A DNA stretch of 64,000 nucleotides from Candidatus Latescibacterota bacterium (GTDB lineage Bacteria; Latescibacterota; UBA2968; UBA8231). Of this stretch, positions 2,088 to 64,000 are shown in pieces; the stretch's first letter is position 1; each line of letters starts with the position of its first letter. Where the stretch lies: assembly GCA_965204725.1 (NCBI GenBank), contig OZ242005.1, positions 5,280,001 to 5,344,000 of the forward strand, in the 5' to 3' direction. The notes beneath the pieces were generated by a model that saw nothing but the letters and a program-made list of their open reading frames with translations, did not search any database and was not told the DNA's origin. The position numbers and the translations under genes are program-made.

Positions 2088-2972
2088 ATGTATTGGATTG
2101 CGACTGTCGGCGTTTTGTTGCTGGCCCTGCCCGCCCTCGCCCACTACCCCGAAGACACCACCTTCAAGGTCTTCCAATTCCCCGACGACCACGTCCCGCA
2201 GATGAACGGCGATGCGGCCGACTGGGCCAAAGTGCCCGCCGAGTATTTCTACGACTACACCCAATACGCGGAACTCCACCGCGAGCGCGGCGCGCCCGAC
2301 ACCACGGATTTTCACGTGCGCCGCTCGGCTGTCGGCTGGAACAAAACCCACAATCGCCTGTACTTCATGGCCGAGGTGTACGACGATATCTGGCGGTTTC
2401 ACAAGGACATCACCGACTCGCTCGACACCCCCCATAGCCGCCTGACTGGGGCCCACGTCCACGGCGCAGATATTTGGGAAATCGTCATTGACGCCGATCA
2501 CGGCGGCGATAAGGTCATCCACTTCGCCGACTCAGCAGAAGCACCGCACGTGGAATTGCGCCACCGCAGCGCGTACACCCAAAACTACCACCTCTACATC
2601 CCGCCGCTCAACGGCCAGTACTGGCACTGGCTGTGGGGCAAGGCGCTGTGGACCAAGGAGGAACGCTATTCAGCGGTGGGATGGCAGGGCGCGGTCGAGC
2701 ACTTGTCGGCGGGCACCGTCACCTACGAATGCTACTTAACGCCCTTCGACGACCTGCACCCGGAAGGACCGCATCTGAGCCGCCGACACGCGCTGCAAGA
2801 AGGCGCGATCATCGGCCTCGGCTGGTCCTTTCTCGACGCGGACACCAAAGAAGACGACTTTGACGGCTTTTGGGCACTGACGCAACACCCGAAAATGTAT
2901 TGCAGCGGAGAATTTATCGGCGACTTCGAGCTAATGCCGCTCGAGGAAGGGTTGTTTGGCGACAGGGAATAA
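2088..2972 (+). CDS. Secreted CBM9/DOMON-like beta-sandwich protein (His-x-Pro family, copy 1, no SWGxIK tail)
   Basis: AGGAG RBS; signal peptide ...LPALA|HYPE; PQMNGDAADW, GWN...RLYF..EVYDD and DIWEIVIDADH are shared with 11537..12505 and 43135..44046. Confidence 0.7.
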   Translation: MYWIATVGVLLLALPALAHYPEDTTFKVFQFPDDHVPQMNGDAADWAKVPAEYFYDYTQYAELHRERGAPDTTDFHVRRSAVGWNKTHNRLYFMAEVYDDIWRFHKDITDSLDTPHSRLTGAHVHGADIWEIVIDADHGGDKVIHFADSAEAPHVELRHRSAYTQNYHLYIPPLNGQYWHWLWGKALWTKEERYSAVGWQGAVEHLSAGTVTYECYLTPFDDLHPEGPHLSRRHALQEGAIIGLGWSFLDADTKEDDFDGFWALTQHPKMYCSGEFIGDFELMPLEEGLFGDRE

Positions 2973-2976
2973 GTGC

Positions 2977-5550
2977 TCAGTACGCGACCGAGATCGTCCT
3001 GAGTACATGGGCATCTTTGACCTGCGCTCCCTCAATGTCGGTATCCACGCTTAGCTGCACCACATACAGCCCCGGCGGCACCACGCGCCCGCCGTCGTCC
3101 CGGCCATCCCACTCAATCTCATAGGGGCCGGTGCTAAAGGGGCGCGCTTGCGCGAGACGCCATATTAGGCGGCCTCCCAAATCGTAGATCTCGGCCGCTA
3201 CCGGGCTATCGTCGCCGACCCGCACGACATTGAAGGCAAAGACCGTGCGGTCGTTGATCCCGTCGCCGTTGGGCGAAAAGGCCGCTGGCCGCACCGCCAC
3301 ATCCATGAGCAGGGCGTTCTGCTCCACAGCCGCGACAATCGTCGTGGTGTTGCCGATGACCTGCGGGAGGGCCTCCCCGGGGTCAATCCGCTGCCAAGCA
3401 CCGCCATCTGCGCCGCTATTGCGTAGGGCGGCCTGCAACACCGCGCCGGTGACGAAAAGCGCCGTCTCAAAATCCAGCCTCAGCACTTCGGTCGAGCCAT
3501 TGGGCTGGATCGCATCAAAGCGCACGTGCAGGGAGTCGCGGCCCGTAGGCAGGACCTCGACCCCGGGCAGCGCGTTGGGCACCGTCTCGCCGTCGAAATC
3601 CGCCACTTGACCACCGTACAGGCCCACCATGGCTAGCTCCATGTTCGACGGCGCCAACAACAACAACTCGTCAAAACCCGAATCGCGGCGGTCAAACTCC
3701 GGCCGCACGTACAGGGAAAACGGCCGCTGTACCCCGAGTTCTTCTACCTCGAATGGGCCGATCTCGCCCAACAGACGCTGCGCCACGGGATTGGCGAAAT
3801 TGAGATGGACCGAGCGCAGCGTTGGGCTGAGCTCCGGGTCTTCCGACAGCAAGGTCGCCTGCACCGTGAGGAACTCCCGCGGCGATGGCGAGGAAATCGG
3901 GCTGCCGGCCGGATTCTCATAAGGCGCGCTCCAATTGCCCCAATCGCTGCCGGGCACTTGCTCGGCGACGATGTCGCCCCGGAACAGGGACAGCAGTTTG
4001 TTGTATTCGCTCTCGGTCACTTCGGTGCCGTCGTTTTTGAAATAGTGTAGTATCTCGCCCAATTCACTGCCCGTGCGCGTCTGAATCTGCACTTGGGTTC
4101 CGGGGGGCGTGTCGGCATCCCACTCAATCGACAACAGGTTGCGGCTGCCGCCCAAGCGAATGAGGTCGGACCGTAGCGAAACCTCCGGTTGGAAGCCTTC
4201 GCCGTAGAATTGCAACTCGGCTATATCGGCCGTGCGGGCACCAATGGCATTCAAGGTCCACTGAAAGCGGCCAAACCGCGCCTTGATCGGCTCGAACTCC
4301 TCGCCTTCAAACCGCGAGGTGGGGCGCGACCCCAGCGACGCCTTGGTGGTCCATTGGAGGCTGCCGTCGGGCGCGAGGGTGCCGTCGGAAAAATCCATTC
4401 GGTAGCTGGGGAACAAACCGCCGTTGTAAACCAAGCGGAAGGTATCGACCCAATAAAACGAACCCAGGTCGAAGACCAGCTCCAGCTCGGGATCTGCCAC
4501 CGCCGAGGAGACCCCGTAAAAGATGCGATTGAAGGTCGCCAAGTCGCCATCGACGAACTTGGTCAGGGCCAGCGGCTGCTTTGCATTGGTCGAGATGACG
4601 CCGCCGCGCGCGAGGATGCCGGCGGTTAGCTCGTCCCCTTCGTTCCAGACCTCCAGCTCGGCCAAGCGGGGCAATTCCCGGCGAAAATAGCGGACGCTGC
4701 CCCGGCGGTCCGCGTCCAATATGTCGTACAGGTCTGAGTCAACGGGCACCTCGCGGCCATCGGGCTGGCGCTTGAAGTACTGAATTGCCCCGCGCGTCTC
4801 TTCGCTGAGGGCGTCGTATTCAGCGGCCGATACTTCCGTGCCGAGCATCCCGTCGGTATCTGTGACCAAAATTTGCACAAAGCGCACGGCCGCGGCCTCG
4901 ACATTGGGCTGTTCGTTGGTCAGATCGACCGTAAAGACCCGCTGGCTCTTGTTTTCGCTCAAGGTCCGCAACACGGTCTTAAAGGCCGGGTTTTCGCTGT
5001 TTTGCAAGCGCGCTGGCTTGAGTCCATCGGAGATGAGCACCTCAAACAAGAGAAAGGGATCGCCCATACCCTCCTCGACGAAGCGCACCACGAGTTCTTG
5101 GGCAAAAACCACGCGGCCCAAGTCGATCACAAACCACCACTGCGAAGCCAAGTCGCGGTCGCCGGCCGGCGGATCGGGCTGCCAATAGGTGGCGAGGTCG
5201 CCGTCGAGCAGGTTGACCACATCGGCGACATTGGAGCCGCCCTTGACAGCGTCGGAGAGGACGATCTCAGCCGGCTCTTTGCCGCCGAGGGACGCCGGCG
5301 GATTAAAGCGCAGATAATCGACAATGTCGAACACGGCGTTGGTATTCTTTTGAATGCGCCGAGAGCGCACTTCTCCGTCTGGAGAAATCGTCAAGGTCCC
5401 CGGGGCAAATTCCCAGTTTTGCCAATGGTTGCGGCCATTGATTACGACCTGATTGCCGCCGACCCGGTGGCCGGCCGACTGGGCGCACACGGCGACCCCG
5501 GCCAATGAGACCGCTAGCCCCATGCAAAGGGCGCGTCCTAAGATAGTCAT
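2977..5550 (-). CDS. Secreted protein with two discoidin/F5-8-like domains and a C-terminal FlgD-Ig/type-B-CTD-like domain
   Basis: Signal peptide; LLDGDLATYW..WFVIDLGR and FVDGDLAT..FDLG..IAELQFYG; FSPNGDGIND...WDGRDDGGRVVPPGLY; ends ISVAY. Closest in-window paralog is 56706..59714. Confidence 0.8.
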   Translation of the reverse strand: MTILGRALCMGLAVSLAGVAVCAQSAGHRVGGNQVVINGRNHWQNWEFAPGTLTISPDGEVRSRRIQKNTNAVFDIVDYLRFNPPASLGGKEPAEIVLSDAVKGGSNVADVVNLLDGDLATYWQPDPPAGDRDLASQWWFVIDLGRVVFAQELVVRFVEEGMGDPFLLFEVLISDGLKPARLQNSENPAFKTVLRTLSENKSQRVFTVDLTNEQPNVEAAAVRFVQILVTDTDGMLGTEVSAAEYDALSEETRGAIQYFKRQPDGREVPVDSDLYDILDADRRGSVRYFRRELPRLAELEVWNEGDELTAGILARGGVISTNAKQPLALTKFVDGDLATFNRIFYGVSSAVADPELELVFDLGSFYWVDTFRLVYNGGLFPSYRMDFSDGTLAPDGSLQWTTKASLGSRPTSRFEGEEFEPIKARFGRFQWTLNAIGARTADIAELQFYGEGFQPEVSLRSDLIRLGGSRNLLSIEWDADTPPGTQVQIQTRTGSELGEILHYFKNDGTEVTESEYNKLLSLFRGDIVAEQVPGSDWGNWSAPYENPAGSPISSPSPREFLTVQATLLSEDPELSPTLRSVHLNFANPVAQRLLGEIGPFEVEELGVQRPFSLYVRPEFDRRDSGFDELLLLAPSNMELAMVGLYGGQVADFDGETVPNALPGVEVLPTGRDSLHVRFDAIQPNGSTEVLRLDFETALFVTGAVLQAALRNSGADGGAWQRIDPGEALPQVIGNTTTIVAAVEQNALLMDVAVRPAAFSPNGDGINDRTVFAFNVVRVGDDSPVAAEIYDLGGRLIWRLAQARPFSTGPYEIEWDGRDDGGRVVPPGLYVVQLSVDTDIEGAQVKDAHVLRTISVAY

Positions 5551-5628
5551 AGCGTTTCCCGTTGTGTTCTAAGGTGTTTTAACTCGTTCAGGGTACGGAA
5601 ATTGCATATCGTCCGCCAATCATTCCCG

Positions 5629-6857
5629 TCAATATACTAGGGCGGTCACGGCCTGCCGCTGGGTCGTTCCCTGATCGGTCTCTACCCGCAAGCTGACCAC
5701 ATACAACCCCGGCGGCAACAACCCACCCCGCTCGTCCCGACCATCCCATACCCCCACATACCGACCACTGCCCAACCAAGACGAATCCACCAAACCCACC
5801 CGACGACCCGACACGTCATACACCCAACACACCAACGACGACAAACCCGAAAGATTCAACACATCGCAGCCGATGGCAACTTCGTCGTTGATCCCATCGC
5901 CGTTGGGACTAAACACCCCCGGCTCCACCGACAACGAACCCAAAGGACCCGTGCCCAACCCGGTCAAATCCACCCGCAGCCCCGCGCTCGAAGGCTCCTC
6001 ATCCGCATCGCCTCCGGCCAATGCCTGCGGCACCTCGTGCGGATACGCGCTGTTGAAGACCCGACCCGTAAACACCGTGCCAAACTGGAACACCGACGCA
6101 TAGAAATCGACTTCGAGCACCTCGTCGGTGCGCTGGGCATCCATCTGCGGCACGGCCAGCACCACTCCACTGGCGTCTTGTTGGAGGACCTCAAAAGCCA
6201 CCGGCTGCCCCGACAGACGCACCGCATCCACCCGCTCCACCCGCGCCGGCGTGTCGATAGCCAAGCGGTCAAAGCCCAAGTCCCCGCTCGCCATCGACGC
6301 CTTGACCTTGTAGGTGAACGCTGCCGCCGCGCCCGGTGCCACCACCGAGGGCACGATCTCGGCGACCGCTTGTTGCGCCACCGGCGGGATCGACACCGCC
6401 AGCATCACCCAATCGAGCCGACCGCTGGCGCGCTGCTCAGAAGTAAAGTCGGCGCGCACCTGCACAAACTGGCGCGGTCCCGCGCCGGCGATGGCCCCTT
6501 CGCCGGCGGCAAACGCTTGGGCGGTACTCCAGAACGTCCACGCCGCTGTGTCGTGGGTGATGCCCGCCTGCGCCCCCCGCGCCAGCTTGTTGTACGACGC
6601 CAAGCGCAAGGGATGGCCCCGCTCGTCGAAGCGGGTGCGCTCGCCGCCGCGAAAGGTGTAGCGCCAGTACGTATTCGGATCGGCGTCGTGGCCGCTGCGC
6701 GTGCTCAACGCCAGCGTCGCCCCCTCGTCCTGCTGACCCGCCCACGTCAGGCGACCGAGGCTGGCAGGTGCGCCCAAGTCAATCACATTCGACACATAAC
6801 TGGCAAACGGGGCAAAGCCGCGACCGTAAATCTCCAACTCCGCAATCTCCCAAATAC
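5629..6857. repeat. ~1.23 kb near-identical direct repeat, copy 1 (3' two-thirds of the gene)
   Basis: Matches 9501..10729 at offset 3872; only 8 amino-acid differences over ~408 residues in the provided translations. Confidence 0.92.
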
Positions 6858-7554
6858 TCCCCGTGTTCTCCTTAGCGTAAAACAAAACGTAGCGGATGGG
6901 CTGATGCGGGAACTTCAGGTCGATGACGGGCTGGGTGTTTTCCACCACGTCATGCACAATATCAAAATCAAAATAAAATCCAGCGGCCCCCAAATTCTCT
7001 TCCCGCGTCCCATCCTTGAGCGGGTTGCCGTCGTTGATGCCGATTCTAAACTGCTGCACAAAGCGATCGGTGCGGTGCTGGTCGCGGGGAAAAAAGCGGA
7101 TGCGGTCGAGGAGGAGCGGCGCACCCAAGTCAAACGTCAGGGCCTTGATATACGGCCAATGCACGGCATAGCGCCCATCGCCCAGAAAGGCGGTCTTTAC
7201 GTCGCCATCAAACATCAAGGCATCGGTTTCCGTATGGGATAGCCAGCCATTCCAAGCAAACCTGAGCACTTCGCCCCCGCGTTCCTCAATCAGCGGGGTC
7301 AGGTTGAGGTCCGGGCTGAGCGACTGCGGGCGAATCGAATCCGGATCGAGCTGGATTAGGCTTTCACGGCCGTGTTGGGCCGCGTCAATCTCGCTCCAGC
7401 CGATTTGCACGAATTTGTATGGAACGTCCAGCGCTGGAGGCGGTAGGCTCTCGCCGCCGATCCGATAAATAGTCAGCCCGCTCGCGGCCGGCGCGTGGAG
7501 CAGGGAAGCGGCGAAAAACAGCGAGCCGACCCAATGTTTTGTCGGGCAAAACAA
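5629..7554 (-). CDS. Secreted discoidin-like + FlgD-Ig CTD protein (LTIYRIGG subfamily)
   Basis: Signal peptide; MFDGD..FDLG..RIRFFPR..WEIAELEIYG; FSPNGDGIND..WDGRD; ends TALVY. Confidence 0.8.
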   Translation of the reverse strand: MFCPTKHWVGSLFFAASLLHAPAASGLTIYRIGGESLPPPALDVPYKFVQIGWSEIDAAQHGRESLIQLDPDSIRPQSLSPDLNLTPLIEERGGEVLRFAWNGWLSHTETDALMFDGDVKTAFLGDGRYAVHWPYIKALTFDLGAPLLLDRIRFFPRDQHRTDRFVQQFRIGINDGNPLKDGTREENLGAAGFYFDFDIVHDVVENTQPVIDLKFPHQPIRYVLFYAKENTGSIWEIAELEIYGRGFAPFASYVSNVIDLGAPASLGRLTWAGQQDEGATLALSTRSGHDADPNTYWRYTFRGGERTRFDERGHPLRLASYNKLARGAQAGITHDTAAWTFWSTAQAFAAGEGAIAGAGPRQFVQVRADFTSEQRASGRLDWVMLAVSIPPVAQQAVAEIVPSVVAPGAAAAFTYKVKASMASGDLGFDRLAIDTPARVERVDAVRLSGQPVAFEVLQQDASGVVLAVPQMDAQRTDEVLEVDFYASVFQFGTVFTGRVFNSAYPHEVPQALAGGDADEEPSSAGLRVDLTGLGTGPLGSLSVEPGVFSPNGDGINDEVAIGCDVLNLSGLSSLVCWVYDVSGRRVGLVDSSWLGSGRYVGVWDGRDERGGLLPPGLYVVSLRVETDQGTTQRQAVTALVY

Positions 7555-7576
7555 GGCGGATGGCTCCCAATCGCGC

Positions 7577-11426: not shown

Positions 11427-11465
11427 AACGGCCTTGTGATTGGACTGAGGGGGCAAAAATATGAC

Positions 11466-11504
11466 AAAAAAGGACGGGTAGATCAACGAAGACCTACCCG
11501 TCCT
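11466..11504 (-). terminator. Rho-independent terminator of 11537..12505
   Basis: 11-bp stem AGGACGGGTAG/CTACCCGTCCT with an adjacent A-run on the + strand (U-tract on minus). Confidence 0.8.
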
Positions 11505-24233: not shown

Positions 24234-24235
24234 AA

Positions 24236-25696: not shown

Positions 25697-25700
25697 CCCC

Positions 25701-42933: not shown

Positions 42934-43064
42934 AGCAACCCTCCGCAATACGACCGAAAAAGGAACCTTTGCAAAAGCTACGCGCTCAATGACTCCGGTC
43001 AACACGTCATGTCCATTGTAAAACGTTTGCTTCGCTGCGCTTCATCTCCTTGCCTCTGCCGCCC

Positions 43065-43236
43065 AAACAAACGCCCTGCTCCCCGAAGGAAGCAGGGCGT
43101 TTGCATACCCTGAAAAAGCAGTCGCACGCAGCTTTTAGTACGCGGCCTTGATCTGGCCCCAGCTCACGTCCTCGACCGAAGTCCCGGCACCTGCGGCCTC
43201 CATCGAAGGCTCTAGCGGAGCCAACACCACGTCGTT
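43065..43236. repeat. Intact copy B: 3' end of 43135..44046 plus terminator
   Basis: Direct repeat of 42126..42262. Confidence 0.9.
43069..43102 (-). terminator. Rho-independent terminator of 43135..44046
   Basis: Hairpin identical to 42130..42163. Confidence 0.8.
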
Positions 43237-46331: not shown

Positions 46332-46475
46332 GGGTCTCTTCCTTGAGTTGCCGGTAATATAAAAAGAGAAGCGGGCCGTTTAGCAAGTTCAGATCTGGGC
46401 AGGGCGAGCCGCGCTCAACTTGATTTATGCCCGTACTTTGGTTGTCTTATGCCGCAAATCGCACGGAGGATTGCA

Positions 46476-53975: not shown

Positions 53976-53986
53976 GCGCTTCGCGC

Positions 53987-56705: not shown

Positions 56706-59700
56706 CTAGTAGGCCACGGCGATAACCCGCGCTTGCGTCGTTGGGACCCCGGTGGCGTCGGCGTCGAGCCGGACTTGGCACAGATACAGCCCGGGCGGCA
56801 CCCGGCGGCCCCGGTCATCGACGCCATCCCAACGCACCGCGGTGCGGCCGCTCAACACCATCTCCTCGCGCTGCCAAATCCGCCGCCCATTGAGCGCGTA
56901 AATCCGCACTTGGAGGCGGCGACTCGACGTCAGCTTGAAGATCTCTAGCGAGATTTCAGCCGCGTCGTTGATCCCATCGCCGTTGGGGGTAAAGGGGTTG
57001 GGACCGACGGCGAGGCCATGGACCAGCCCGTCGTCGATGGGGACGTTGATCGAGAGCGTGTTGCTGGCGACGCCTTCGTCGGCGTTACCCGCTTCAACCG
57101 CCTGCCACGCCACCTCGGCGTTGGCGGTTGCCGCGTGGCGCACGAACAGGCGCAAAGTAGTGCCGTTGAGAAAGACCGGGGCCGAAAGGCGCATGCGAAA
57201 GCGCGGACCCGGCCCGGCGACGAGGCCGCGCTTCGTCGCGGAGAGGCGGTTGTACGCGACCAAGTCGAGCGAGTCGCCGAGCGCATTAAAGGGGAACTGG
57301 GCGCCGTCGCCGCGCAGAATGCGGAAGTAGCGGATCGGGCCTTGCTCCGCGCTGGGCAGGTCTTGGTAGCTCGTTTGGTCAATTTCGCTGAGCCGGTCGC
57401 CGGTGCGGCGAAAGTAGCGGATGGTGCCGCGCTCGTCTTCGTCGAGGGTGCCATAGGCCGCGGCCGTAAGCGGCAAGCCGCCTTGCGTAACGGGCACCTC
57501 TTCGCCTTCGAGGGCAATGCGATGGTACGTGCGGCCGGCGGCCGGCAGGATGTTGAGCGCGTCGTCTAGGCGCACCCAGATCGAGTCGCCGCCATTGGCC
57601 AACAGCGCGATTTGCGCTTGATCGCTGGCCGCGAGCACGCCGCCCTCGGCGGGGCGAAAGACTTGTTCGCCGTCTGGGCCGCTGAGGCCAAACTCCACGA
57701 GTTCGAGCTGGTCCGAGGCCGGCATGGTCAGCAGGATTTCGTTGAAGCCCGTGCTGCGCGAGGCGGCGGGCGACTCAATGAAGTAGGGCTGGGCAAACAC
57801 GTCAAAGGTCTCCCGCACCCCGGAGGCCGCCACCGAGGCCGGCCACAACTCGGCCGCGATGCGCTCGGCCACGGGATGGAGCAGCTCGACGGAGAGCGAG
57901 CGGATCGATGCGGCCGCCTCGCGGTCGGTGGTGATCATCTCAACTTGGAACTGCATGTACTTGCGTAGGCCGGGGGAGGTGACCATGTCGCCGGGCTGCT
58001 GATAGGCGCGGCTCCAAGGGCTCCAGCCGCTGGTGGGTACGAAGGAGGTGTCGGCTGGCCCCTTGAAGCTGCCCAAGAGGTTTTTCCAAGCGTCATAGGC
58101 GATTTCGTTGCCCGTTTTGTCGTAGTAGCGCACGACCTTGCCCAGCAAGTCGCCGGTGCGGGTGCGGACGGCGACGGTCGTGCCCGGGGGCGTCTCGGCC
58201 TCCCAAGCGATGGCCCCAAAGTTGCGCACCCCCGGCAGCGCGATCAGATCGGAAGTCAGTTCGACTTGCGCTGGGTAGCCGGTGGAAAAAAGCTGGTACT
58301 CGGCAATGGTCGGCCCCGTGTTGTAGCCACCCCGGCGGCGCGGATCCGCCGAGAGGATGCTCACCTCGAGGAAGCGGAGCTTGGGGCTGGGGGTATAGGT
58401 ATCGACGATGTGCTCAAAGCGGTCGGTGCTATTGTCCTCGCGGGCGCGGGGGCTGAGACGCGCCCACTTAATTTTGCCGCGCGTGTCGCGCGAGCCGTCG
58501 GAGCCGCGGATTAAGTAGCCGTCGATAAAAGGCTGGGGCCGGGCCGAGGAAATCCGCATGGCGTCGAGCCAAAACGACGCGCCCATGTCCACGGTGAGCA
58601 CGCCGCGGTCGATGGTCGGCGACCAAACGAGGTGTAGGAAGCTGGTGTTGAAATCCGCGTCAAACGCCGGCCCCGGCAGAAAGCCATCGCCGGTCAGGTC
58701 GAGATGGCCGCCGCCGGCCACTAAGCCGCTGCTGATGTTGTCGCCAAACCCGTACACCTCAATTCCGGCTAGGCGCGGCCGCTCGCGCCGGTAGTAATCG
58801 AGGCGGCCTTGGCGCTGGGCATCGAGGCTTTCATAGACCGCACGCTCGACCGGCTCTTCAAAGCCTTGTTCGTCGCGGATGAAATAGACGATCGCGCCGC
58901 GCTCGTCGGCTGGCAGGGCCTGCCATCCCGCTTCGCCGATGAGCTCGCCGCGCTCGCCGCGCGTATCGCTGACCACGATGCGGATGGTCTGGACCATTTT
59001 GCCCCGCCAATCGGCGTCGGCGTCGAGCTGTTCGAGGCCAATGCGGAAGGTGCGTTGGTCGCGATTGGGGGCCTTGGTGTTGGCGACTCGTTCAAAGGTG
59101 ATTTTGTCGGCGTTTTCCCACACCGGCTCTTGGTCGGGCGCGGCGAGGACGCGGAACTGGAAGAAGGGGTCGCCCAACTCCTCTGCGACGAAGTGAATGA
59201 CGAGGGAATCGACCGCCACGACGCGGCCCAAGTCCATTTCGATCCACCAGTCGTCCAACGACGCCTGCGGGTCGGGCTCCCAGAAAGTGGTCGGGTCGTC
59301 ATCGAGGATGTGGGCAGCCGCGGCCGCGTTTGAGCCAACGCGGCTGATGCCCGGGCGAAAGAAATAGGAGTAGATGGGGTTGCCCTTGCGGTCGAGGATG
59401 ACTTCGCCTTTTACGTCGCGGGTCTGGGTGCTGTCGATGTTGAGGATGGCGGTCTGATTGCGGCGGCGACGCAGCTCGGGGATGGGGCGCGTGAAGGTCG
59501 CTAGATCGTCGAGCAGGTTGAAGTGGGCGCGAAAAAAGTGCGGCTCAACCACACCATCCGGCGACACCTTCACGGCATGGGTCGGCAACTGCCAATTCTG
59601 CCAGTGCGCGGCCCGGTTGACTTGGACGGAGCGGCTGGTGACGCGGTGGCCCTTTTGGGCGTGGACTGCGACCAGCGGCGTTGAGCAAAGGACGAGAAAC

Positions 59701-59714
59701 GCTAGGAGCCTCAT
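56706..59714 (-). CDS. Large secreted protein with two discoidin-like domains and FlgD-Ig CTD
   Basis: Start MRLLAFLVLC (ATGA overlap); VHA|QKGHRV..HWQNW as in 2977..5550; FTPNGDGIND..WDGVD; ends IAVAY. Confidence 0.8.
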   Translation of the reverse strand: MRLLAFLVLCSTPLVAVHAQKGHRVTSRSVQVNRAAHWQNWQLPTHAVKVSPDGVVEPHFFRAHFNLLDDLATFTRPIPELRRRRNQTAILNIDSTQTRDVKGEVILDRKGNPIYSYFFRPGISRVGSNAAAAAHILDDDPTTFWEPDPQASLDDWWIEMDLGRVVAVDSLVIHFVAEELGDPFFQFRVLAAPDQEPVWENADKITFERVANTKAPNRDQRTFRIGLEQLDADADWRGKMVQTIRIVVSDTRGERGELIGEAGWQALPADERGAIVYFIRDEQGFEEPVERAVYESLDAQRQGRLDYYRRERPRLAGIEVYGFGDNISSGLVAGGGHLDLTGDGFLPGPAFDADFNTSFLHLVWSPTIDRGVLTVDMGASFWLDAMRISSARPQPFIDGYLIRGSDGSRDTRGKIKWARLSPRAREDNSTDRFEHIVDTYTPSPKLRFLEVSILSADPRRRGGYNTGPTIAEYQLFSTGYPAQVELTSDLIALPGVRNFGAIAWEAETPPGTTVAVRTRTGDLLGKVVRYYDKTGNEIAYDAWKNLLGSFKGPADTSFVPTSGWSPWSRAYQQPGDMVTSPGLRKYMQFQVEMITTDREAAASIRSLSVELLHPVAERIAAELWPASVAASGVRETFDVFAQPYFIESPAASRSTGFNEILLTMPASDQLELVEFGLSGPDGEQVFRPAEGGVLAASDQAQIALLANGGDSIWVRLDDALNILPAAGRTYHRIALEGEEVPVTQGGLPLTAAAYGTLDEDERGTIRYFRRTGDRLSEIDQTSYQDLPSAEQGPIRYFRILRGDGAQFPFNALGDSLDLVAYNRLSATKRGLVAGPGPRFRMRLSAPVFLNGTTLRLFVRHAATANAEVAWQAVEAGNADEGVASNTLSINVPIDDGLVHGLAVGPNPFTPNGDGINDAAEISLEIFKLTSSRRLQVRIYALNGRRIWQREEMVLSGRTAVRWDGVDDRGRRVPPGLYLCQVRLDADATGVPTTQARVIAVAY

Positions 59715-62002
59715 GGTGCCCTCCTGAGAATCCGGTAGGTCGCCTCGCCTTGGGCGATGCGGATGCGGCAATCGACGGGCAGGTCAAAAAAGCGCTGGGG
59801 GGGCTGACCGGGCCAGAGCACGTGCAGGCTATCGACGCGGGTCGCCGCCCCCAGCCCGAGGTGCAAAAGCGGCTCGTTGCTGCTGCCGAAGCCAAAGCCG
59901 CTCTGGCGCTGGGCGCGGATGGCGCGGCCGGAGGCAAAGGCGGCGACGTGCGCGCCGAGCGCACTGCGATTGGCCTCGGTACCCACCAGCTCAATGGATA
60001 GATAGTGCTGCGCCGGGCCGTCGTTGCGATAGAGCGCGTTGTCCCAAGTGTCGGCGTCGTAGTGCCCGCCCAAGCCAGCGTACAGGTCCAAGTCGCCGTC
60101 TTGATCGAAGTCGGCGAAGGTGGCCCCGTGGCCCTTGCCGAGGCTGCCGGTGCCGGCCGGGACCGTAATATCGGCAAAGGTGCCGTCGCCCAAGTTGCGG
60201 AAGAGCGCGTTGGGTTCGAGGCGGGCCATTTGCGGGCCGCCGTTGGCGAGGTAAATATCGACGAAGCCGTCGTTGTCTATATCGCCCACGCCCGCGCCCA
60301 TACTGCCGAAAGAGCGCTTGAGGCCGGCCGCGACCGCGATGTCGGCAAAGGTGCCGTCACCCAAGTTGCGATAGAGAAAGGGCCGGTTCGGCTCAATGGC
60401 CTCACCGGTGACCATGCTGTTGAGGACATCGGGAAAGGCGCTCATAGTGGAAGCAAATAGGTCGAGATGCCCATCGTTGTCAAGGTCGAAAAAGAACGCC
60501 ACATACCCGCCTTCCACCGGAAAGAGCACGCCGGCGCGCTCGGCCACATCGGCCCAAGTGTCGTCGCCGAGGTTGCGATAGAGGCGGTTGAACTGGCCGA
60601 TGTTGACCGCGTACAAGTCGGTCCAGCCATCGCCGTCAAAGTCGCCCGCGGTCGTGCCAATGGTCTGGCCCGAGTCGGCGACCGCGGCCGCCGCGGCCAC
60701 GTTGAGGAACGCGCCGTTTTTCTGGTTGTGCAGGAGGGCGTTTGGCTCGCCCGAACCCGTGACGCCGTTGGCCACGTACAAATCGAGGTAGCCATCGCGG
60801 TCGAAATCGAGCCACGCGACCGTAAAGCTATCGCTGGAGTCGGCCAGGCCCGCGGCGCGACCCACGTCGAGGAATGCGCCCGCGTCGTTTCTGTACAATG
60901 AGTTGGGGGCGCGGCCCTCCCAAGCGTCGCGGCTGACGAAGAGGTCGTCGTCCCCGTCGTTGTCAAAGTCCGCGGCCGCCGCGGCCCAACCGCCACGCGC
61001 ATCGGCCAGCCCGGCCGCTTGGGCGACCGCGCGAAACTGGCCGCGGTCGTTGCGGTACAGCGCGTGCTCGGCTTGGATGCCAACGCTGAAGAGATCGAAG
61101 TCGCCATCGCCGTCAAAGTCGAGCCACGCGCTGCCACGGCCGCGATCGTTCTTGGCCACGCCGACGCGGGCGGCCACATCGACAAAGCGCACGTCGGTCG
61201 CTACGGGCCTAGAGGGGTGCTGGGGAAAGCGATAGCGCGGCTCCAGCGCGGGTGCCGCGTCGCCCTGTCGCTCGTGGGTCAGCTTGAGCAGCCACAGGGC
61301 CTCTAGCCGGTCGAGCGACTCCAACAAATCAACCGCTCTTTCGAGCCAAGGCCGGGCGCGGCCGTCGCCCGCCCAGAAGGCCGCTGTGCCCGCCAAGAGA
61401 TAGGCGCGGCCATCGTCTGGATAGGCATTCAGCAACGAGCGGCTGCGCTCCAAGGCTGCGGGAAAGCGGCCGAGGCGCAGCGTGGCTTGGAGCAAGAGGT
61501 AATGCGCGTCGCGGCGCTGAGGTTGGGCCGCCAGCGCTTGGCTGCACAGGGCCGTGGCACGTTCGAGGTTCATGGTCGCGGCGGCCTGCAAGTACAGCTC
61601 GGCCAGCAGCAGGCGGCCGTCGAGCGAGTGGGGATATTGGTCGAGGATTTCATTGACGGCGAGTTCGGCTTCGCGGGCAAAACCGCCAAACGCGAGGAGA
61701 CGCGCTTCGAGGAGGCGGGCTTCGGGGCGCTGGCGCGCCGGCACCGGCAGATCGTCGAGCAGGCGGCCCGCCCGCTGCCACCGGCCTTGGCGGAGCAGGG
61801 CTTCGCCGCGGCGGATTTGGGCAATCGAGCTGTCGGGTGCCAAGCGGACGACGCGCTTGAAGCGATCGGCCGCCTCGGAGAACCGCCCTTGGTGCAGCAG
61901 GCTCAGGGCCTCGGCATAGACGCGGTCGCTTTCGGCCTCGGGCGGGGCTTGGCAGCCGATGCAAAGGCCGGCCAAAAACAGGGCGCGGAAGCGACCCATC
62001 AC
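59711..62002 (-). CDS. TPR + CRTAC1-family (FG-GAP/ASPIC-UnbV) lipoprotein
   Basis: CIGC lipobox; N-terminal TPRs; DFDxDGxxDL repeats; ANRSALGAHV..LHLGLG..VLWP. Confidence 0.88.
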   Translation of the reverse strand: MMGRFRALFLAGLCIGCQAPPEAESDRVYAEALSLLHQGRFSEAADRFKRVVRLAPDSSIAQIRRGEALLRQGRWQRAGRLLDDLPVPARQRPEARLLEARLLAFGGFAREAELAVNEILDQYPHSLDGRLLLAELYLQAAATMNLERATALCSQALAAQPQRRDAHYLLLQATLRLGRFPAALERSRSLLNAYPDDGRAYLLAGTAAFWAGDGRARPWLERAVDLLESLDRLEALWLLKLTHERQGDAAPALEPRYRFPQHPSRPVATDVRFVDVAARVGVAKNDRGRGSAWLDFDGDGDFDLFSVGIQAEHALYRNDRGQFRAVAQAAGLADARGGWAAAAADFDNDGDDDLFVSRDAWEGRAPNSLYRNDAGAFLDVGRAAGLADSSDSFTVAWLDFDRDGYLDLYVANGVTGSGEPNALLHNQKNGAFLNVAAAAAVADSGQTIGTTAGDFDGDGWTDLYAVNIGQFNRLYRNLGDDTWADVAERAGVLFPVEGGYVAFFFDLDNDGHLDLFASTMSAFPDVLNSMVTGEAIEPNRPFLYRNLGDGTFADIAVAAGLKRSFGSMGAGVGDIDNDGFVDIYLANGGPQMARLEPNALFRNLGDGTFADITVPAGTGSLGKGHGATFADFDQDGDLDLYAGLGGHYDADTWDNALYRNDGPAQHYLSIELVGTEANRSALGAHVAAFASGRAIRAQRQSGFGFGSSNEPLLHLGLGAATRVDSLHVLWPGQPPQRFFDLPVDCRIRIAQGEATYRILRRAP

Positions 62003-63447
62003 GGCCCTTGGTCCAGTTCGCCCAGCTTGGCCCGGGCGCGTTGGTGATCCGGGGCGAGGGCGAGCACCTTTTGCAAGGCTTGCCGCGCTTGGTCCCGCTG
62101 CCCTTGCTGCACGAGGATCAGCGCCAACCCGTAGTGCGATTCCGCGTGGTCTGGATCGAGGGCAATGCTGCGGGCGAAATGGGCGCGGGCATCGCGGTAG
62201 CTCGCTTGGCGGATGTAAGCCAGCCCGAGGACATAGTGGGCGTCGCGGTGGTCGGGATCACGGGCGAGGGCTTGGCGCAACGCGGCGACAGCCCCGGCAA
62301 AATCGCCGCGTTTGAAACGCGTTCGGCCCAAGCCATAGGCCGCGGCAAAGGAGTGGGGATCCAGTGCCAAGGCGCGGCCAAAGTGCGCGGTGGCTTCCTC
62401 GAGTACACCCTCGTGCAAGTACAGGTCGCCCAACATGAGGCTGGCGTCGCGGTGGTTGGGATCGCGGGCGAGGACTTGCTCCAGCGCGGCGCGGGCGTCG
62501 GCAAAGCGCTTTTGCTGCGCGTACACAGTGGCGAGGCGCAGGCGAATATCGACCGAGGTCAAGTCGTTGGCGAGGGCGCGCTTTAGGGAGTCAATCGCCT
62601 TATCCCACGCGCCTTGGCGGATGTAAATGTTGCCTTGATTGAGGTGGCGCTCGGCCGCGCTCAATCGCTGGAAGCGGCCCTGCGCGGTGCGGGCGTCGTC
62701 CGGCCGGGCACACTCGGCGTAGGCTTGGGCGAGTAAGTAGTGGGGCGCGGGATTGTGGGGGGCCGCGGCCGCGACGCGCTTGAGCACGGGAATGGCCGCG
62801 GCGGGTTCCCCGAGGCGGATGAGCAGGTCGCCCAAGCCGAGGCCGCCTTGGACGTGGTCGGGATCGCGGGCGAGCAGCGCGACAAAACCTGTGCGCGCTT
62901 GGGACAACTGCTGGTCGCGCCGGAGGAGGTCGCTGTGGTAGTAGCGGGCCGCGAGGTGGTCCGGGGCGAGTTCAATGGTGCGTTTGAAGGCCGCCAGTGC
63001 CCCCGCAAAATCGCCGGTGGCGCGCCGCACCTCGCCCAGATAGAAGTGGTATTTGGGATGCTCGGGCGCGAGGGCGACGGCCTGCTCTAGATGGGTCGCC
63101 GCCTCTAGATAGCGGTGCTGGTCGCGCAGCACGGCGGCGAGGGCAAAGCGAGCGCGGGGCTGGCCGGGCTTCAGGGCCAAGGCGCGTTTGAAGGCCGCAA
63201 TGGCCAGCGACGGTTGATCGAGTTGGGCATGGGCTAGGCCCTTTTGAAAATGGGCGGTGCTCGACGCGGAATCGAGCGCCACGGCCTGCGCGAGCACCTC
63301 TAGGGCGCGGGCGGGCCGATCCTGTTGCAAGAAGAGCGTCCCGCGCTGGAGCAAGCGGCGGGCTTCTTCCGGGCGCGGCGCGTCCTGCGGGCTGGGCTGG
63401 TCGGCGCAGGCGAGCGCGGCCAAAATCAGCAACAGGCATGCGGTCAT
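61999..63447 (-). CDS. Tetratricopeptide-repeat lipoprotein
   Basis: ALAC lipobox; many LA.DP.H..AhyxLG units. Confidence 0.85.
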   Translation of the reverse strand: MTACLLLILAALACADQPSPQDAPRPEEARRLLQRGTLFLQQDRPARALEVLAQAVALDSASSTAHFQKGLAHAQLDQPSLAIAAFKRALALKPGQPRARFALAAVLRDQHRYLEAATHLEQAVALAPEHPKYHFYLGEVRRATGDFAGALAAFKRTIELAPDHLAARYYHSDLLRRDQQLSQARTGFVALLARDPDHVQGGLGLGDLLIRLGEPAAAIPVLKRVAAAAPHNPAPHYLLAQAYAECARPDDARTAQGRFQRLSAAERHLNQGNIYIRQGAWDKAIDSLKRALANDLTSVDIRLRLATVYAQQKRFADARAALEQVLARDPNHRDASLMLGDLYLHEGVLEEATAHFGRALALDPHSFAAAYGLGRTRFKRGDFAGAVAALRQALARDPDHRDAHYVLGLAYIRQASYRDARAHFARSIALDPDHAESHYGLALILVQQGQRDQARQALQKVLALAPDHQRARAKLGELDQGP

Positions 63448-64000
63448 TGGACCAGTGAGTCCGGTAGAGCGGCCTCAAGCGCTCGCTCGTCAATGTCAAC
63501 CCGGCTCTGATAGCGCTGGCGCAGGTCTTTGACGAAAGCGGTGAAGGCCGCATTTTCCCGCTCGCGGCGCAACAGCGCGTGGGCGCGGCGCTGGACCTGC
63601 TCGTACGGCTCGACCCGGCCGGGATTGCGCCCTTGGACGCGGAAAACGGAGTACCCGTCGCGGACCCGAATGGGGCCAACGAGCTGGCCCGGTTCGGCCG
63701 CATAGATCGCCGGGACTAGGCGCGGATAGAGCTTCTCGTCGCGTGGATGGAAGTGGAAGCGCGCTTGCGACTGGGCGGCTTGGGCGCGTACGCTGCGGTC
63801 GGCGAGCTCGGCAAAACTCGCGCCGGCCGCGAGTTGGTCGGCCAGCCGCTGGGCCTCGGCCGGGCTGGACGCGAGCAACTCTTCAACTTCGACGGACTCT
63901 TCGTGATAAAACATGTCGGGATGACTGTCGTAGTATTCCCACACCTCGGCGTCGGAGAGCATTTCGACGGCCGCGAAGCGGTTGCGCACGGCGTTGAGCA
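63444..64000 (-). CDS. PpiC-type foldase, C-terminal part (5' end outside the window), paralog of 22524..24233
   Basis: YYDSHPDMF..VEVEELL..GASFAELA..LVGPIRVRDGYSVFRV matches the second rotamase domain of 22524..24233. Confidence 0.8.
   Translation of the reverse strand, partial: LNAVRNRFAAVEMLSDAEVWEYYDSHPDMFYHEESVEVEELLASSPAEAQRLADQLAAGASFAELADRSVRAQAAQSQARFHFHPRDEKLYPRLVPAIYAAEPGQLVGPIRVRDGYSVFRVQGRNPGRVEPYEQVQRRAHALLRRERENAAFTAFVKDLRQRYQSRVDIDERALEAALPDSLVQ

Follow-up and report, generated by a model that had tools for sequence, protein, structure and literature searches.

A cassette repeated in Latescibacterota combines secreted, tail-bearing, sugar-binding-like proteins with a giant predicted outer-membrane barrel

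The window analyzed here is a 64,000-nt stretch of the Candidatus Latescibacterota bacterium assembly GCA_965204725.1 (contig OZ242005.1, positions 5,280,001 to 5,344,000 of the forward strand), in which 42 of the 184 open reading frames (ORFs) of ≥100 aa were taken as likely genes and compared by all-against-all BLASTP. It contains a left (2.1 to 31 kb) and a right (43.1 to 64 kb) gene cluster. Their genes are referred to below by family, i.e., the barrel (B), the C-terminal domain (CTD) cargo (C, with C0 for the ~750-aa cargo upstream of the barrel and G for the giant cargo), the CBM9-like SWGxIK protein (H), the parvulin PPIase (P), the CRTAC1-like FG-GAP protein (F), the TPR protein (T), and three membrane proteins with TPR repeats (M, the type encoded at 12635 to 14370; Y, PMT_2 plus TPR; and S, an MFS/spermidine-synthase-like/TPR fusion). 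On the same strand as the left cluster and immediately upstream of it is an SBP_bac_5 ABC importer, and positions 970 to 1983 encode a sugar-type binding protein.

The left cluster opens on the plus strand with a third H paralog (2088 to 2972), which has a signal peptide ending in ALA followed by H, is devoid of the SWGxIK tail, and matches the H proteins at 43135 (E 2e-21) and 11537 (E 2e-22) by BLASTP. The minus strand then encodes the 857-aa G (2977 to 5550), whose N-terminal region is discoidin-like and whose C-terminal domain is type-B-like (CHU_C 24.0, FlgD_ig 26, and F5_F8_type_C 25.1 bits, all slightly below cut-off); three tandem C paralogs (5629 to 7554, 7577 to 9490, and 9501 to 11486), 61 to 81% identical to one another (BLASTP) and matching CHU_C and FlgD_ig; an H protein (11537 to 12505) in which signal-peptide cleavage is predicted to leave an N-terminal His, whose C-terminal tail is SWGHIKA, and to which we assign the fold modeled for its paralog at 43135; and the polytopic M (12635 to 14370), with hydrophobic segments and a C-terminal TPR region, its only Pfam match. 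A reading-frame check places a frameshift in M near 12943 relative to intact orthologs of 578 to 617 aa. Next come two tandem barrels (17318 to 20131, then 14382 to 17318; 38% mutual identity) and, directly upstream of them across an 11-nt gap, C0 (20143 to 22452; CHU_C 29.5 and FlgD_ig 34.5 bits, both above cut-off). On the plus strand are P (22524 to 24233), with two rotamase domains (Rotamase_2 76, Rotamase 50.6 bits) and a lipobox-like LASC near the N terminus; T (24236 to 25696), with TPR family matches and a lipobox-like Cys; and a further C (25701 to 27596; CHU_C 28.7 bits), 46 to 49% identical to those at 5629, 7577, and 9501. Two minus-strand F genes (27590 to 29290 and 29218 to 31038; FG-GAP_3 175 to 177, UnbV_ASPIC 70 to 83 bits) complete the cluster.

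The right cluster is encoded on the minus strand except for one gene. It comprises H (43135 to 44046; predicted N-terminal His, tail SWGQIKAAY); C (44211 to 46331; CHU_C 44.9 bits); a plus-strand C0-type cargo (46449 to 48544) split by a frameshift near 47462 to 47477 (frame check), its two ORFs matching residues 80 to 323 and 414 to 769 of the product of 20143 (BLASTP); S (48570 to 51743; NF037959 148.8 bits, cut-off 40, plus Spermine_synth, MFS_1, and TPR); and Y (51765 to 53975), a GT-C (PMT_2) glycosyltransferase-like protein with hydrophobic segments and a C-terminal TPR region (PMT_2 30.8 bits, cut-off 26.1), whose ORF spans 51765 to 54338 with a likely start at MARRS, just downstream of the barrel. 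The barrel itself (53987 to 56640, the latter coordinate being approximate because the likely start is MAIAV) is 47% identical to that at 17318 (BLASTP). Directly upstream is G (56706 to 59771; CHU_C 32.2 bits; F5_F8_type_C_2 28.0 bits, cut-off 27.8). Beyond it are a TPR plus CRTAC1-like F (59711 to 62002; FG-GAP_3 161.5, UnbV_ASPIC 48.9 bits, TPR_19, lipobox-like Cys), T (61999 to 63447; TPR families, lipobox-like ALAC), and the C-terminal part of P, cut by the window end (63444 to 64000; Rotamase_2 77 bits). The C0-type gene, one of the two frameshifted cassette genes together with M, is thus away from the barrel and on the opposite strand, and G stands upstream of the barrel instead. The 31- to 43-kb interval, which lies inside the coordinates given by the initial annotation, is unrelated to the cassette: it encodes an Opp-type ABC transporter, GmrSD/HEPN defense genes, metabolic enzymes, and a PIN/RHH pair.

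Each left/right pair that had been proposed consists of real paralogs by BLASTP, except for the membrane-TPR enzymes. The giants 2977 and 56706, both with GHRV and HWQNW near the N terminus, are 33% identical over 741 aa (E 1e-101); the three barrels, 38 to 47% across ~940 to 990 aa (E 0); the SWGxIK proteins 11537 and 43135, 28% (E 1e-23); the PPIases 22524 and 63444, both with Pfam Rotamase domains, 31% (E 2e-15); and the FG-GAP/UnbV_ASPIC proteins 27590, 29218, and 59711, 35 to 42% (E 1e-46 to 1e-116). The TPR proteins 24236 and 61999 are ~30% identical (E 6e-16), a less specific likeness at the level of the TPR repeat. The membrane-TPR enzymes do lie downstream of the barrels, but only their TPR parts align, the left gene (12635 to 14370) being nonhomologous to those of the right cluster (PMT_2, 51765 to 54338; MFS/spermidine-synthase fusion, 48570 to 51743). 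The overlapping stop/start codons reported for the clusters are real (TAATG at 17318; ATGA at 61999 to 62002 and 63444 to 63447). Gene order is unlike between the clusters. Judged from these alignments, the two window copies are old paralogs (26 to 47% identity) with shuffled gene order.

To place the window in context, we surveyed 79 barrel loci, mostly from Latescibacterota MAGs and drawn from the best 80 of at least 614 matches; these loci are nonindependent samples, because they come from ~40 related MAGs that each carry several paralogous loci. Co-occurrence and conserved synteny of the components, on which the initial annotation had staked its reading, hold across many genomes. A count of two copies falls short: this is a multicopy family, with 2 to 4 loci per genome among the best 80 matches alone. 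CTD cargo is present in 76/79 loci, the parvulin PPIase in 56, the SWGxIK/CBM9-like protein in 47, a count that tblastn raises to 58, and FG-GAP/UnbV_ASPIC proteins in 28. Of the 89 barrel runs in these loci, 82 could be scored, the other 7 being at a locus edge. A same-strand CTD cargo gene directly precedes the barrel in 67, another 7 place the barrel after the PPIase within a C-B-P-B arrangement, and the remaining 8 have no cargo directly upstream and lie outside such a unit. This cargo-barrel linkage holds across barrel paralogs of 49 to 95% identity and ~35 gene-order variants. Genes of the cargo, PPIase, and SWGxIK/CBM9-like families are concentrated within 3 kb of the barrel (C genes, 106/132 cases within 3 kb of the barrel run), whereas unrelated genes are spread evenly (57, 86, and 108 at 0 to 3, 3 to 6, and >6 kb).

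The conserved core is the cargo, the barrel(s), the CBM9-like protein, and the parvulin PPIase. The initial annotation had also counted CRTAC1-like, TPR, and membrane modifier genes as components; these are accessories rather than core, because among 57 full-length loci F occurs in only 25, T in 24, M in 15, Y in 11, and S in 1. The core is operon-like, with C0 followed directly by one or two predicted ~930-aa outer-membrane barrels, and the unit usually adds a CBM9-fold SWGxIK protein, tail-bearing paralogs (some discoidin-like), and a parvulin PPIase. The window holds two diverged copies of a cassette that recurs many times in genomes of the uncultured phylum Latescibacterota, made up of secreted, sugar-binding-like, tail-bearing proteins and a giant barrel. 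In the loci we also found 17 M orthologs, 16 of them full length and ending in SAMPWATGT(P/A); a polytopic inner-membrane protein (DUF6785 plus DUF6784) in 25/79; and, in some, sulfatases, an FGE-type sulfatase maturase, and sugar-acid dehydratase-like, fuconolactonase-like, and neuraminidase-like proteins.

The PNGDGxND tail, finishing in V(A/V)Y, closes nine window genes. CHU_C (PF13585) exceeds its Pfam cut-off in six of the nine; TIGR04131 is below cut-off in every window protein (best 22.9 bits, cut-off 35). A tail HMM matched 192 ORFs of the loci, always ending ≤5 aa from the C terminus, and all 32 C0 orthologs carry CHU_C (at E ≤ 0.01) and FlgD_ig. In NCBI, close homologs already bear the name "T9SS type B sorting domain-containing protein" or [quoted passage not shown]. 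By sequence, then, the cargo tails match CHU_C, a T9SS type B signal. As to the cargo bodies, F5_F8_type_C_2 is above cut-off in 56706 and slightly below in 2977 and 5629; as a lead only, F5_F8_type_C occurs in 61 to 70% of the members of the Atlas clusters nearest the C0 body.

The AF2 model of H 43135 (pLDDT 86) superposes on the CBM9 structure 1i82_A (Foldseek E 2.5e-9, TM 0.74 normalized to the target) and more weakly on 2ivf_C and 7b04_C; sequence matches to CBM9_1 (17.7 bits, cut-off 23.4) and 1i82 are weak. His24, with which the mature protein is predicted to begin, is invariant in 44/44 H sequences, and the C-terminal tail TAVExxSWGxIK is conserved. The model indicates a CBM9 fold for the H proteins. 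Their closest known counterparts are CBM9 (1i82, 7nwn) and the related heme-b subunits of ethylbenzene dehydrogenase and nitrite oxidoreductase; unlike CBM9, H is a stand-alone secreted protein and not a glycoside hydrolase module, and it has the invariant His and the conserved tail.

Barrel family members are ~930 aa long, with a signal peptide and nearly all beta-strand (AF2 pLDDT 71, pTM 0.66). They have no Pfam, NCBIfam, or PDB sequence match, and with Foldseek the model finds only large outer-membrane barrels, the nearest being SlpA, MtrB, and LptD, at low TM-scores. The likeness to SprA is weak (E 5.5e-4, TM 0.22 and 0.11), and none to PorP/SprF was detectable with Pfam/NCBIfam. The barrel is accordingly predicted to be a very large outer-membrane beta-barrel of an uncatalogued family; its roughly 24 to 30 strands suggest a channel or translocon rather than a small anchor.

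PorP/SprF proteins have ~300 to 350 aa. The cassette barrel is about three times larger than these, has no family match, and often forms a tandem pair, yet the cassette otherwise resembles T9SS type B/PorP-SprF pairs in its cargo (an N-terminal signal peptide, a CHU_C C-terminal domain, and a weak TIGR04131 match) and in the barrel gene directly downstream on the same strand, with many pairs per genome. In Bacteroidota, type B CTD substrates have their cognate barrel gene directly downstream (PMC12618676), and PorP-like barrels are binding partners of type B CTD proteins (PMC9143113). The cassette differs from that precedent in its Latescibacterota host, in a tail under the TIGR04131 cut-off, and in the CBM9-like SWGxIK protein and parvulin PPIase as extra conserved parts. 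A second parallel is the solved extended T9SS translocon SprA-PorV-PPI-RemZ-SkpA-SprE (PDB 8gl8), whose entry title lists a PPIase and SprE; there, a large barrel, a PPIase, and the periplasmic lipoprotein SprE/PorW move CTD-bearing cargo. The cassette likewise has a barrel, a PPIase (likened at the general PPIase level), and TPR lipoprotein-like genes; by contrast, SprA is a chain of ~2,300 residues and a weak fold match to the barrel, and the TPR proteins score 43 bits against the PorW/SprE model, far below its cut-off of 250.

By analogy with these systems, we tentatively favor, at somewhat short of even confidence, a reading in which the tail-bearing proteins have their cognate outer-membrane partner in the barrel encoded next to them and would capture glycans once displayed. 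The cargo would cross the inner membrane by Sec and be kept competent in the periplasm by the lipoprotein-like PPIase and, where present, the TPR proteins; its C-terminal domain would be recognized by the adjacently encoded barrel, which would carry it to the cell surface and retain it there, as PorP/SprF-type barrels do for type B CTD substrates. Discoidin-like and CBM9-like domains could then bind glycans or other polymers, with Y, M, and S as optional modifiers. If neighboring barrels display glycan-binding domains in this way, each genome would therefore hold a set of modules with different specificities, as we propose. The paralogy within the window, the cargo-barrel linkage, the CHU_C identity of the tail, the type B precedent, the barrel model, the binding domains, and the parallel with 8gl8 argue for a cognate partner; the subthreshold TIGR04131 scores, the missing PorP/SprF likeness, the channel-like strand number, the misplaced C0 of the right cluster, the 8/82 runs with no cargo directly upstream and outside a C-B-P-B unit, the DUF6785/DUF6784 and catabolic neighbors, and the nonindependence of the loci argue against it. 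The initial annotation had described a surface-assembly or ligand-capture system with its own barrel family and no named match. The barrel, SWGxIK, and 12635 to 14370 proteins indeed fit no named family, but the concept has a precedent in the type B CTD/barrel pairs of Bacteroidota (PMC12618676). What is new here is the barrel family, the cargo-then-barrel concept being already known for type B CTDs. Literature searches on T9SS, type IX secretion, or FlgD combined with Latescibacteria/Latescibacterota or Gemmatimonadota gave no relevant match.

The main rival, which we consider rather unlikely, is an uptake locus resembling SusC/SusD polysaccharide-utilization loci (PULs), with the giant barrel as a wide pore through which polymers or oligomers are taken up or diffuse. 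The discoidin-like and CBM9-like surface binders would be placed by a separate, generic T9SS encoded elsewhere, and the genes would adjoin through a common substrate, like SusC/D/E/F, not through the barrel handling the tail. As in PULs, diverged cassettes recur at 2 to 4 loci per genome (best 80 matches alone) and join a barrel to surface carbohydrate-binding-like proteins, here the CBM9 fold of H and the discoidin-like matches of the cargo, and some loci adjoin inner-membrane transporters and catabolic enzymes. Giant barrels of the SlpA type are the best fold matches, and SlpA barrels function as porin-like channels. The window adds the SBP_bac_5 importer upstream of the left cluster and the sugar-type binding protein at 970 to 1983. 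The DUF6785/DUF6784 proteins (25/79 loci) and the nearby sulfatase, sulfatase-maturase, dehydratase-, fuconolactonase-, and neuraminidase-like enzymes fit uptake at least as well as display, although these catabolic neighbors vary by locus and lie mostly in the outer flanks. Unlike SusC/SusD systems, however, the window has no plug/TonB-dependent receptor domain, SusD, or TonB/ExbBD genes by Pfam/NCBIfam and no glycoside hydrolase in either cluster, and the surface proteins are not SusD-type lipoproteins but end in a secretion-type domain. Uptake also leaves the close and almost universal cargo-then-barrel order (67/82 runs) and the cotranscribed PPIase unpredicted.

Improbable in our judgment is an envelope coat, in which an SlpA-like barrel provides the base in the membrane for a surface layer or adhesive coat. 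Tail-bearing paralogs and CRTAC1-like FG-GAP proteins, glycosylated by the PMT_2/TPR enzyme, would build this coat, whose role would be to attach to particles, hosts, or other cells and not to capture nutrients. The Deinococcus-Thermus SlpA (8ae1, 7zgx; PF21620) is all-beta, of similar size, and the best structural match, Deinococcus SlpA/S-layer complex chains being the top three Foldseek hits (E 1e-8 to 4e-7), but at TM-scores of only 0.23 to 0.26. SlpA_C is found below threshold, at the same part of the profile, in 9/40 distant barrel-family members (best 30.2 bits, cut-off 35), but in none of the 52 closer barrels even at E ≤ 10, and a distant-member profile matched no PDB SlpA chain. The many paralogous large secreted proteins of the loci, the FG-GAP/UnbV_ASPIC proteins in 28/79 loci, and the PMT_2 plus TPR glycosyltransferase-like gene of the right cluster would suit a coat. 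Against it, the window has no SLH or coiled-coil domain by Pfam, which SlpA has in its N-terminal part, the genomic context differs entirely from that of SlpA, and a structural coat would not normally be encoded in several diverged copies per genome.

Finally, that the clusters resemble each other only superficially through promiscuous TPR, FG-GAP, and Ig-like tails, with no functional cassette, has a negligible likelihood: the TPR-TPR matches are indeed repeat level and the membrane modifier genes of the two clusters nonhomologous, but this reading is refuted by the full-length BLASTP alignment of the barrels, giants, CBM9-like proteins, and PPIases (E 1e-15 to 0) and by the synteny kept in 79 loci from other genomes.

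The left and right clusters of the window (62% G+C) are composed of common parts. From 184 ORFs of at least 100 aa, 42 likely genes were chosen and analyzed by a Pfam scan and all-versus-all BLASTP, and 29 cassette candidates by an NCBIfam scan. The main array of the left cluster (2.1 to 31.0 kb) lies on the minus strand and starts with a cargo gene of a conserved ~750-aa type, here called C0 (20143-22452), followed by two tandem barrel genes (17318-20131 and 14382-17318), a membrane/TPR protein gene (12635-14370), a CBM9-like gene (11537-12505), three cargo paralogs (9501-11486, 7577-9490, and 5629-7554), and, at its end, a giant cargo gene (2977-5550). A divergent plus-strand unit encodes a parvulin-type PPIase, a TPR protein, and a cargo protein (22524-27596), and the cluster also includes two CRTAC1-like genes (27590-31038) and a paralog of the CBM9-like gene without its characteristic tail (2088-2972). 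In the right cluster (43.1 to 64.0 kb), the minus strand carries a PPIase gene cut at the window end, a TPR gene, a TPR plus CRTAC1-like gene, a giant cargo gene (56706-59771), a barrel gene (53987-56640), a PMT_2/TPR protein gene, and an MFS/spermidine-synthase/TPR fusion gene. A frameshifted C0-type gene (46449-48544, plus strand), a cargo gene (44211-46331), and, last, a CBM9-like gene (43135-44046) complete the cluster.

The initial annotation had regarded the two clusters as copies of one cassette, and every gene pair that it listed in support proved to be truly paralogous by BLASTP among the 42 window genes. The barrels 14382, 17318, and 53987 are 38 to 47% identical over ~940 to 990 aa (E 0), the giant cargo proteins 2977 and 56706 are 33% identical over 741 aa (E 1e-101), the CRTAC1-like proteins 35 to 42% (E 1e-46 to 1e-116), the CBM9-like proteins 26 to 28% (E 1e-21 to 1e-23), and the PPIases 22524 and 63444 31% (E 2e-15); the TPR proteins 24236 and 61999 share ~30% identity at the level of the repeats only (E 6e-16). 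The overlapping stop and start codons that had been noted in the cassette were also found in the sequence. The matching did not extend to the "membrane-TPR enzymes" 3′ of the barrels, the left and right versions of which lack homology. Two genes are frameshifted. The membrane/TPR gene 12635-14370 (minus strand) is interrupted near position 12943, its downstream frame keeping the conserved C terminus ..SAMPWATGTPLKGDS; the 16 full-length orthologs are 578 to 617 aa long and all end in ..SAMPWATGT(P/A), and the frameshift is either an assembly error or the mark of a recent pseudogene. The C0-type gene 46449-48544 consists of two ORFs with a frameshift near 47462-47477 and, unlike in most loci, is distant from the barrel gene and on the opposite strand.

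Barrel 17318-20131 had 957 homologs at E ≤ 1e-3 among 8,000 candidates scored, none carrying a Pfam domain; the small number with a name appear as "hypothetical protein" of Latescibacteria or Gemmatimonadetes metagenome-assembled genomes (MAGs). Scanning a single genome per species yielded at least 614 confirmed matches; the 80 best were kept and correspond to 79 loci. These belong mostly to "Candidatus Latescibacterota" MAGs, with some labeled Gemmatimonadota, one Planctomycetota, and one Myxococcales. In several cases, more than one locus belongs to the same genome (e.g., four each on three chromosomes). At least five loci have a barrel 94 to 96% identical to that of the window, which most likely places the window in a related genome of Latescibacterota. 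ORFs were called in each locus with 10-kb flanks, 57 of the 79 loci being full length, and were then assigned to the window families.

Co-occurrence and synteny of the components across genomes, set beforehand as the test of the cassette, held in the 79 loci, with counts that rest on ORF calling in high-GC DNA of related genomes. A cargo gene (giant or other) was present in 76 of 79 loci and in all 57 full-length ones, a PPIase gene in 56 (46 of the full-length loci), a CBM9-like gene in 47 (58 by tblastn; 39 full length), a giant cargo gene in 46 (41), CRTAC1-like genes in 28 (25), TPR genes in 28 (24), the membrane/TPR gene in 18 (15), the PMT_2/TPR gene in 11 (11), and the MFS/spermidine-synthase fusion in 3 (1). 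The strongest fact is the fixed order of a tail-bearing cargo gene followed by a barrel gene. Among 89 barrel runs, 7 were at a locus edge, leaving 82 to be scored; in 67 of these a same-strand cargo gene, nearly always of the C0 type, lay directly 5′ of the run, and in a further 7 the barrel followed the PPIase gene in a cargo-barrel-PPIase-barrel unit. Of the nongiant cargo genes, 106 of 132 lay within 3 kb of a barrel run; unassigned genes, used as an internal control, numbered 57, 86, and 108 in the 0- to 3-kb, 3- to 6-kb, and >6-kb bins. The 79 loci are not independent, the genomes being related and the cassettes paralogous; the cargo-barrel linkage persists down to 49% barrel identity and over about 35 gene orders.

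None of the three window barrels matched a Pfam or NCBIfam family, a Pfam scan of 52 barrel homologs at E ≤ 10 returned scattered chance matches only, and a PDB sequence search with the profile of the barrel alignment (A1) gave no match at E ≤ 1. The AF2 model built on a 52-row alignment was of moderate confidence (pLDDT 71.1, pTM 0.66) and nearly all beta-strand, with ~30 strands of at least 7 residues. Model confidence for barrel 17318-20131 was low over a conserved N-terminal stretch (residues 31 to 104) and lowest at residues ~36 to 104 and ~540 to 635, the most conserved stretches of the family. The first contains the motif YGNRLG..WY.PQEL..W.QWEYSNYA; the second includes an acidic, Asp/Asn-rich segment (residues 546 to 593), DNDDQD..DENNDFISDFNQNDN..DLNNN.W.DRFEDDD, which looks like a calcium-binding motif. 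We class the protein as a predicted outer-membrane barrel of giant size. Its family, which is uncatalogued, has 969 clusters at 50% identity for E ≤ 1e-3 and 341 for E ≤ 1e-30. Foldseek retrieved large outer-membrane barrels only, all at TM ~0.14 to 0.26: first Deinococcus SlpA/SDBC (E 1e-8 to 4e-7, TM 0.23 to 0.26), then MtrB, LptD, ushers, and TonB-dependent receptors. An LptD/Mtr reading was dropped, these being generic large-barrel matches at TM ~0.2. The nearest named cluster in the ESM Atlas, DUF6029 at 0.89, is below the 0.9 level and is a lead only.

The nine window cargo genes have in common a ~95-aa C-terminal domain with PNGDGxND, ending in ..V(A/V)Y. This tail is C-terminal in all nine, in proteins with an N-terminal signal peptide, and, in the 192 ORFs of the loci that carry it, ends without exception within 5 aa of the C terminus. 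CHU_C (PF13585), by which Pfam models the type B signal of the T9SS, scored above cut-off, at 27 bits or more, in six of the nine window proteins and 24.0 to 24.6 in the other three, and both CHU_C (E ≤ 0.01) and FlgD_ig matched 32 of 32 C0 orthologs. The type B sorting profile TIGR04131 reached 16 to 23 bits in six of the nine, all below the cut-off of 35, and no match to the type A profile TIGR04183 was listed by NCBIfam for the window cargo. Close homologs bear the NCBI names "T9SS type B sorting domain-containing protein" and [quoted passage not shown] and PDB sequence searches with the cargo proteins recovered FlgD Ig-like domains only, via the tails. As to the bodies, F5_F8_type_C_2 was just above cut-off in 56706, discoidin was slightly subthreshold in 2977 and 5629, and the Atlas clusters closest to the C0 body, again a lead only, contain discoidin domains in 61 to 70% of their members.

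The model of the CBM9-like protein 43135-44046 (m02639eccb571; pLDDT 86.2) has the CBM9 beta-sandwich fold, matching 1i82_A with E 2.5e-9 and a TM of 0.74 normalized to the target, and 7nwn and 7nwo similarly; a weaker likeness was to the heme-b subunits of ethylbenzene dehydrogenase and nitrite oxidoreductase. By sequence, PF06452 scored 17.7 bits in 43135 against a cut-off of 23.4, precomputed PF06452 annotations appeared in 7 of 120 homologs among the matches listed, and the family profile matched PDB 1i82 at E 0.033. All 44 aligned sequences of the family (alignment A2) have a His after a signal-peptide-like A/G-x-A/G site, and this invariant residue is predicted to be the first of the mature protein. 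Because the CBM9-like fold is akin to that of heme-b subunits, the N-terminal His may serve as a ligand to a metal or heme; a copper "histidine brace" was considered for it, and the alignment has no second invariant His. The family ends in TAVExxSWGxIK. Among the ORFs of the loci, 45 of the 47 CBM9-like ones have this tail, as does one ORF of another kind. L024:14191-15573 (plus strand), a 460-aa protein outside the CBM9-like family, has a SWGQLK-type tail like that of the family; its gene lies between those for the PPIase and the second barrel in one of the 79 loci.

Among the accessory proteins, PPIase 22524 has two parvulin domains, and a lipobox-like Cys can be read in the sequences of the PPIase and TPR proteins. 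The PMT_2/TPR protein of the right cluster has an architecture that we take to be that of periplasm-facing GT-C glycosyltransferases. A polytopic membrane protein of ~650 aa with DUF6785 and DUF6784, which has no copy in the window, adjoins the cassette in 25 of 79 loci of several gene-order types (among them L014, L030, L038, L042, L056, L065, and L079) and may be an inner-membrane partner of some cassettes.

In its working, the cassette most closely resembles the type B CTD/PorP-SprF pairs. Type B CTD substrates of Flavobacterium johnsoniae need a cognate PorP/SprF-like barrel encoded directly downstream (PMC12618676), and PorP-like barrels are bound by type B CTD proteins (PMC9143113). The barrel of the cassette is different and much larger: where those pairs have PorP/SprF beside the substrate gene, here a new barrel takes the downstream place. 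PorP/SprF was matched by none of 52 barrel homologs (Pfam, E ≤ 10), by no window gene (Pfam and NCBIfam), the three window barrels having no NCBIfam match, and by none of 50 neighbor ORFs (Pfam) or 98 cluster representatives (NCBIfam) of the loci. As judged from these profiles, the cassette falls outside the type B pairs, because PorP/SprF is unmatched and TIGR04131 stays below cut-off. The T9SS core (SprA/Sov, PorK/L/M/N, PorV, and PorU) was likewise absent from the window genes by Pfam and NCBIfam and from the same 50 neighbor ORFs and 98 cluster representatives. A GldK candidate in the loci was a protein of FGE-sulfatase type; it scored 85 bits where the cut-off is 350 and is not a member. 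The literature covered, chiefly other than subscription journals, held nothing tying Latescibacterota or Gemmatimonadota to the T9SS and no account of the cassette, the same being true of the passages covered in PMC11205867. The 2015 Latescibacteria genome paper, in the passages covered, describes porins, TonB-dependent import, and a type VI system and does not mention the cassette (PMC4454575).

Because the cassette repeats the logic of a type B CTD and its cognate barrel, we tentatively favor, at a little short of an even chance, the reading that the barrel accepts the adjacent cargo by the tail and retains it on the cell surface. The cargo would leave via Sec; from that export onward, we infer that the neighboring cargo, helped in the periplasm by the PPIase and the TPR proteins, would be received by the barrel through the tail and kept on the surface, and that ligands would be captured by the discoidin-like and CBM9-like domains. 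Cofolding of barrel residues 36 to 937 with the C0 tail (residues 675 to 769) from separate alignments scored 0.00 in both runs, which speaks neither for nor against binding.

That the loci serve polysaccharide-utilization-locus (PUL)-like uptake is a doubtful yet serious alternative. It is supported by the neighbors in other loci, namely the DUF6785/DUF6784 membrane protein of 25 of the 79 loci and the genes for sulfatases, a sulfatase maturase, and sugar-acid dehydratase-like, fuconolactonase-like, and neuraminidase-like proteins, and the multicopy diversity fits as well; however, it leaves the fixed gene order unexplained, and plug, SusD, and TonB machinery are missing. A SusC/SusD PUL has a TonB-dependent receptor with a plug and a SusD lipoprotein, neither of which was matched by Pfam or NCBIfam in the window genes. 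Chaperone-usher pili were rejected as well, with no Pfam usher or chaperone match in the window genes or the 52 barrel homologs and ushers retrieved only as generic barrels (E ~1e-4, TM ~0.2). The cassette is neither a SusC/D PUL nor an usher system.

In a bolder reading, which we consider unlikely, the ~930-aa barrel would act as the translocon in its own right, within a self-contained system for secretion across the outer membrane and display; this system would have arisen in Latescibacterota next to the Bacteroidota T9SS or in its place. Every cassette would then supply a pore of its own (often two barrels in tandem), a periplasmic PPIase/TPR escort, and tail-bearing lectin-like cargo. The CBM9-like protein, which bears the N-terminal His and the SWGxIK tail, would serve the pore as a dedicated plug or as a subunit that binds a cofactor. 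If the genomes lack the T9SS core, this reading would apply and the cassette would represent a new outer-membrane export route.

More improbable still is an SlpA-like coat or adhesion system, to which the Foldseek matches and a subthreshold SlpA_C profile are weak leads. SlpA_C (PF21620, cut-off 35 bits) matched none of the 52 closer barrels and reached 19.5 to 30.2 bits in 9 of 40 distant full-length barrels; a PDB search with the profile of the distant barrels (A4) found no SlpA chain and two chance-level matches to one unrelated protein, and no window gene matched an SLH domain in Pfam. With scores below cut-off, no SLH, and low TM, bona fide SlpA membership was rejected; the barrel may be distantly related to SlpA-type barrels. 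Finally, that the two clusters are only superficially alike can be dismissed with near certainty from the BLASTP paralogy and the family assignments in the 79 loci.

Latescibacterota are widespread and uncultured. With at least 614 matches and 969 barrel clusters, the cassette is among the most expanded of their envelope gene sets, and no catalogued family includes the barrel, the CBM9-like subunit, or one of the membrane proteins. Should the barrel prove to be the cargo's cognate partner, the principle of a secretion tail with a private outer-membrane barrel would reach beyond Bacteroidota and PorP/SprF, and would offer a handle on polymer capture by these bacteria. Either way, the family merits Pfam and NCBIfam models of its own, the loci now being annotated as rows of hypothetical proteins.

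The clusters are separated at 31 to 43 kb by unrelated genes, including an Opp-type ABC transporter, GmrSD/HEPN defense genes, metabolic enzymes, a repeat protein, and a PIN/RHH pair. The minus-strand region 31164-35219, which immediately precedes the CRTAC1-like genes in their direction of transcription, encodes an SBP_bac_5 binding protein and two Opp-type permeases, with which no ATPase genes were seen; at the other end of the left cluster is a Peripla_BP_4 sugar-type binding protein (970-1983, minus strand). In a low-GC islet (0.488 at 36 to 38 kb versus ~0.62 overall), the gene for a GmrSD_N-domain protein precedes that for a RiboL-PSP HEPN protein (35826-37663, plus strand); the two look like an acquired defense pair. 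ORF 41558-42106 (plus strand) contains a 33-bp tandem repeat of 9.8 copies (41624-41947), equivalent to 11 aa in the protein, which has coiled-coil-type Pfam matches. Adjoining the right cluster are the overlapping genes of a PIN-domain toxin and a FitA-like ribbon-helix-helix antitoxin (42278-43005, minus strand).
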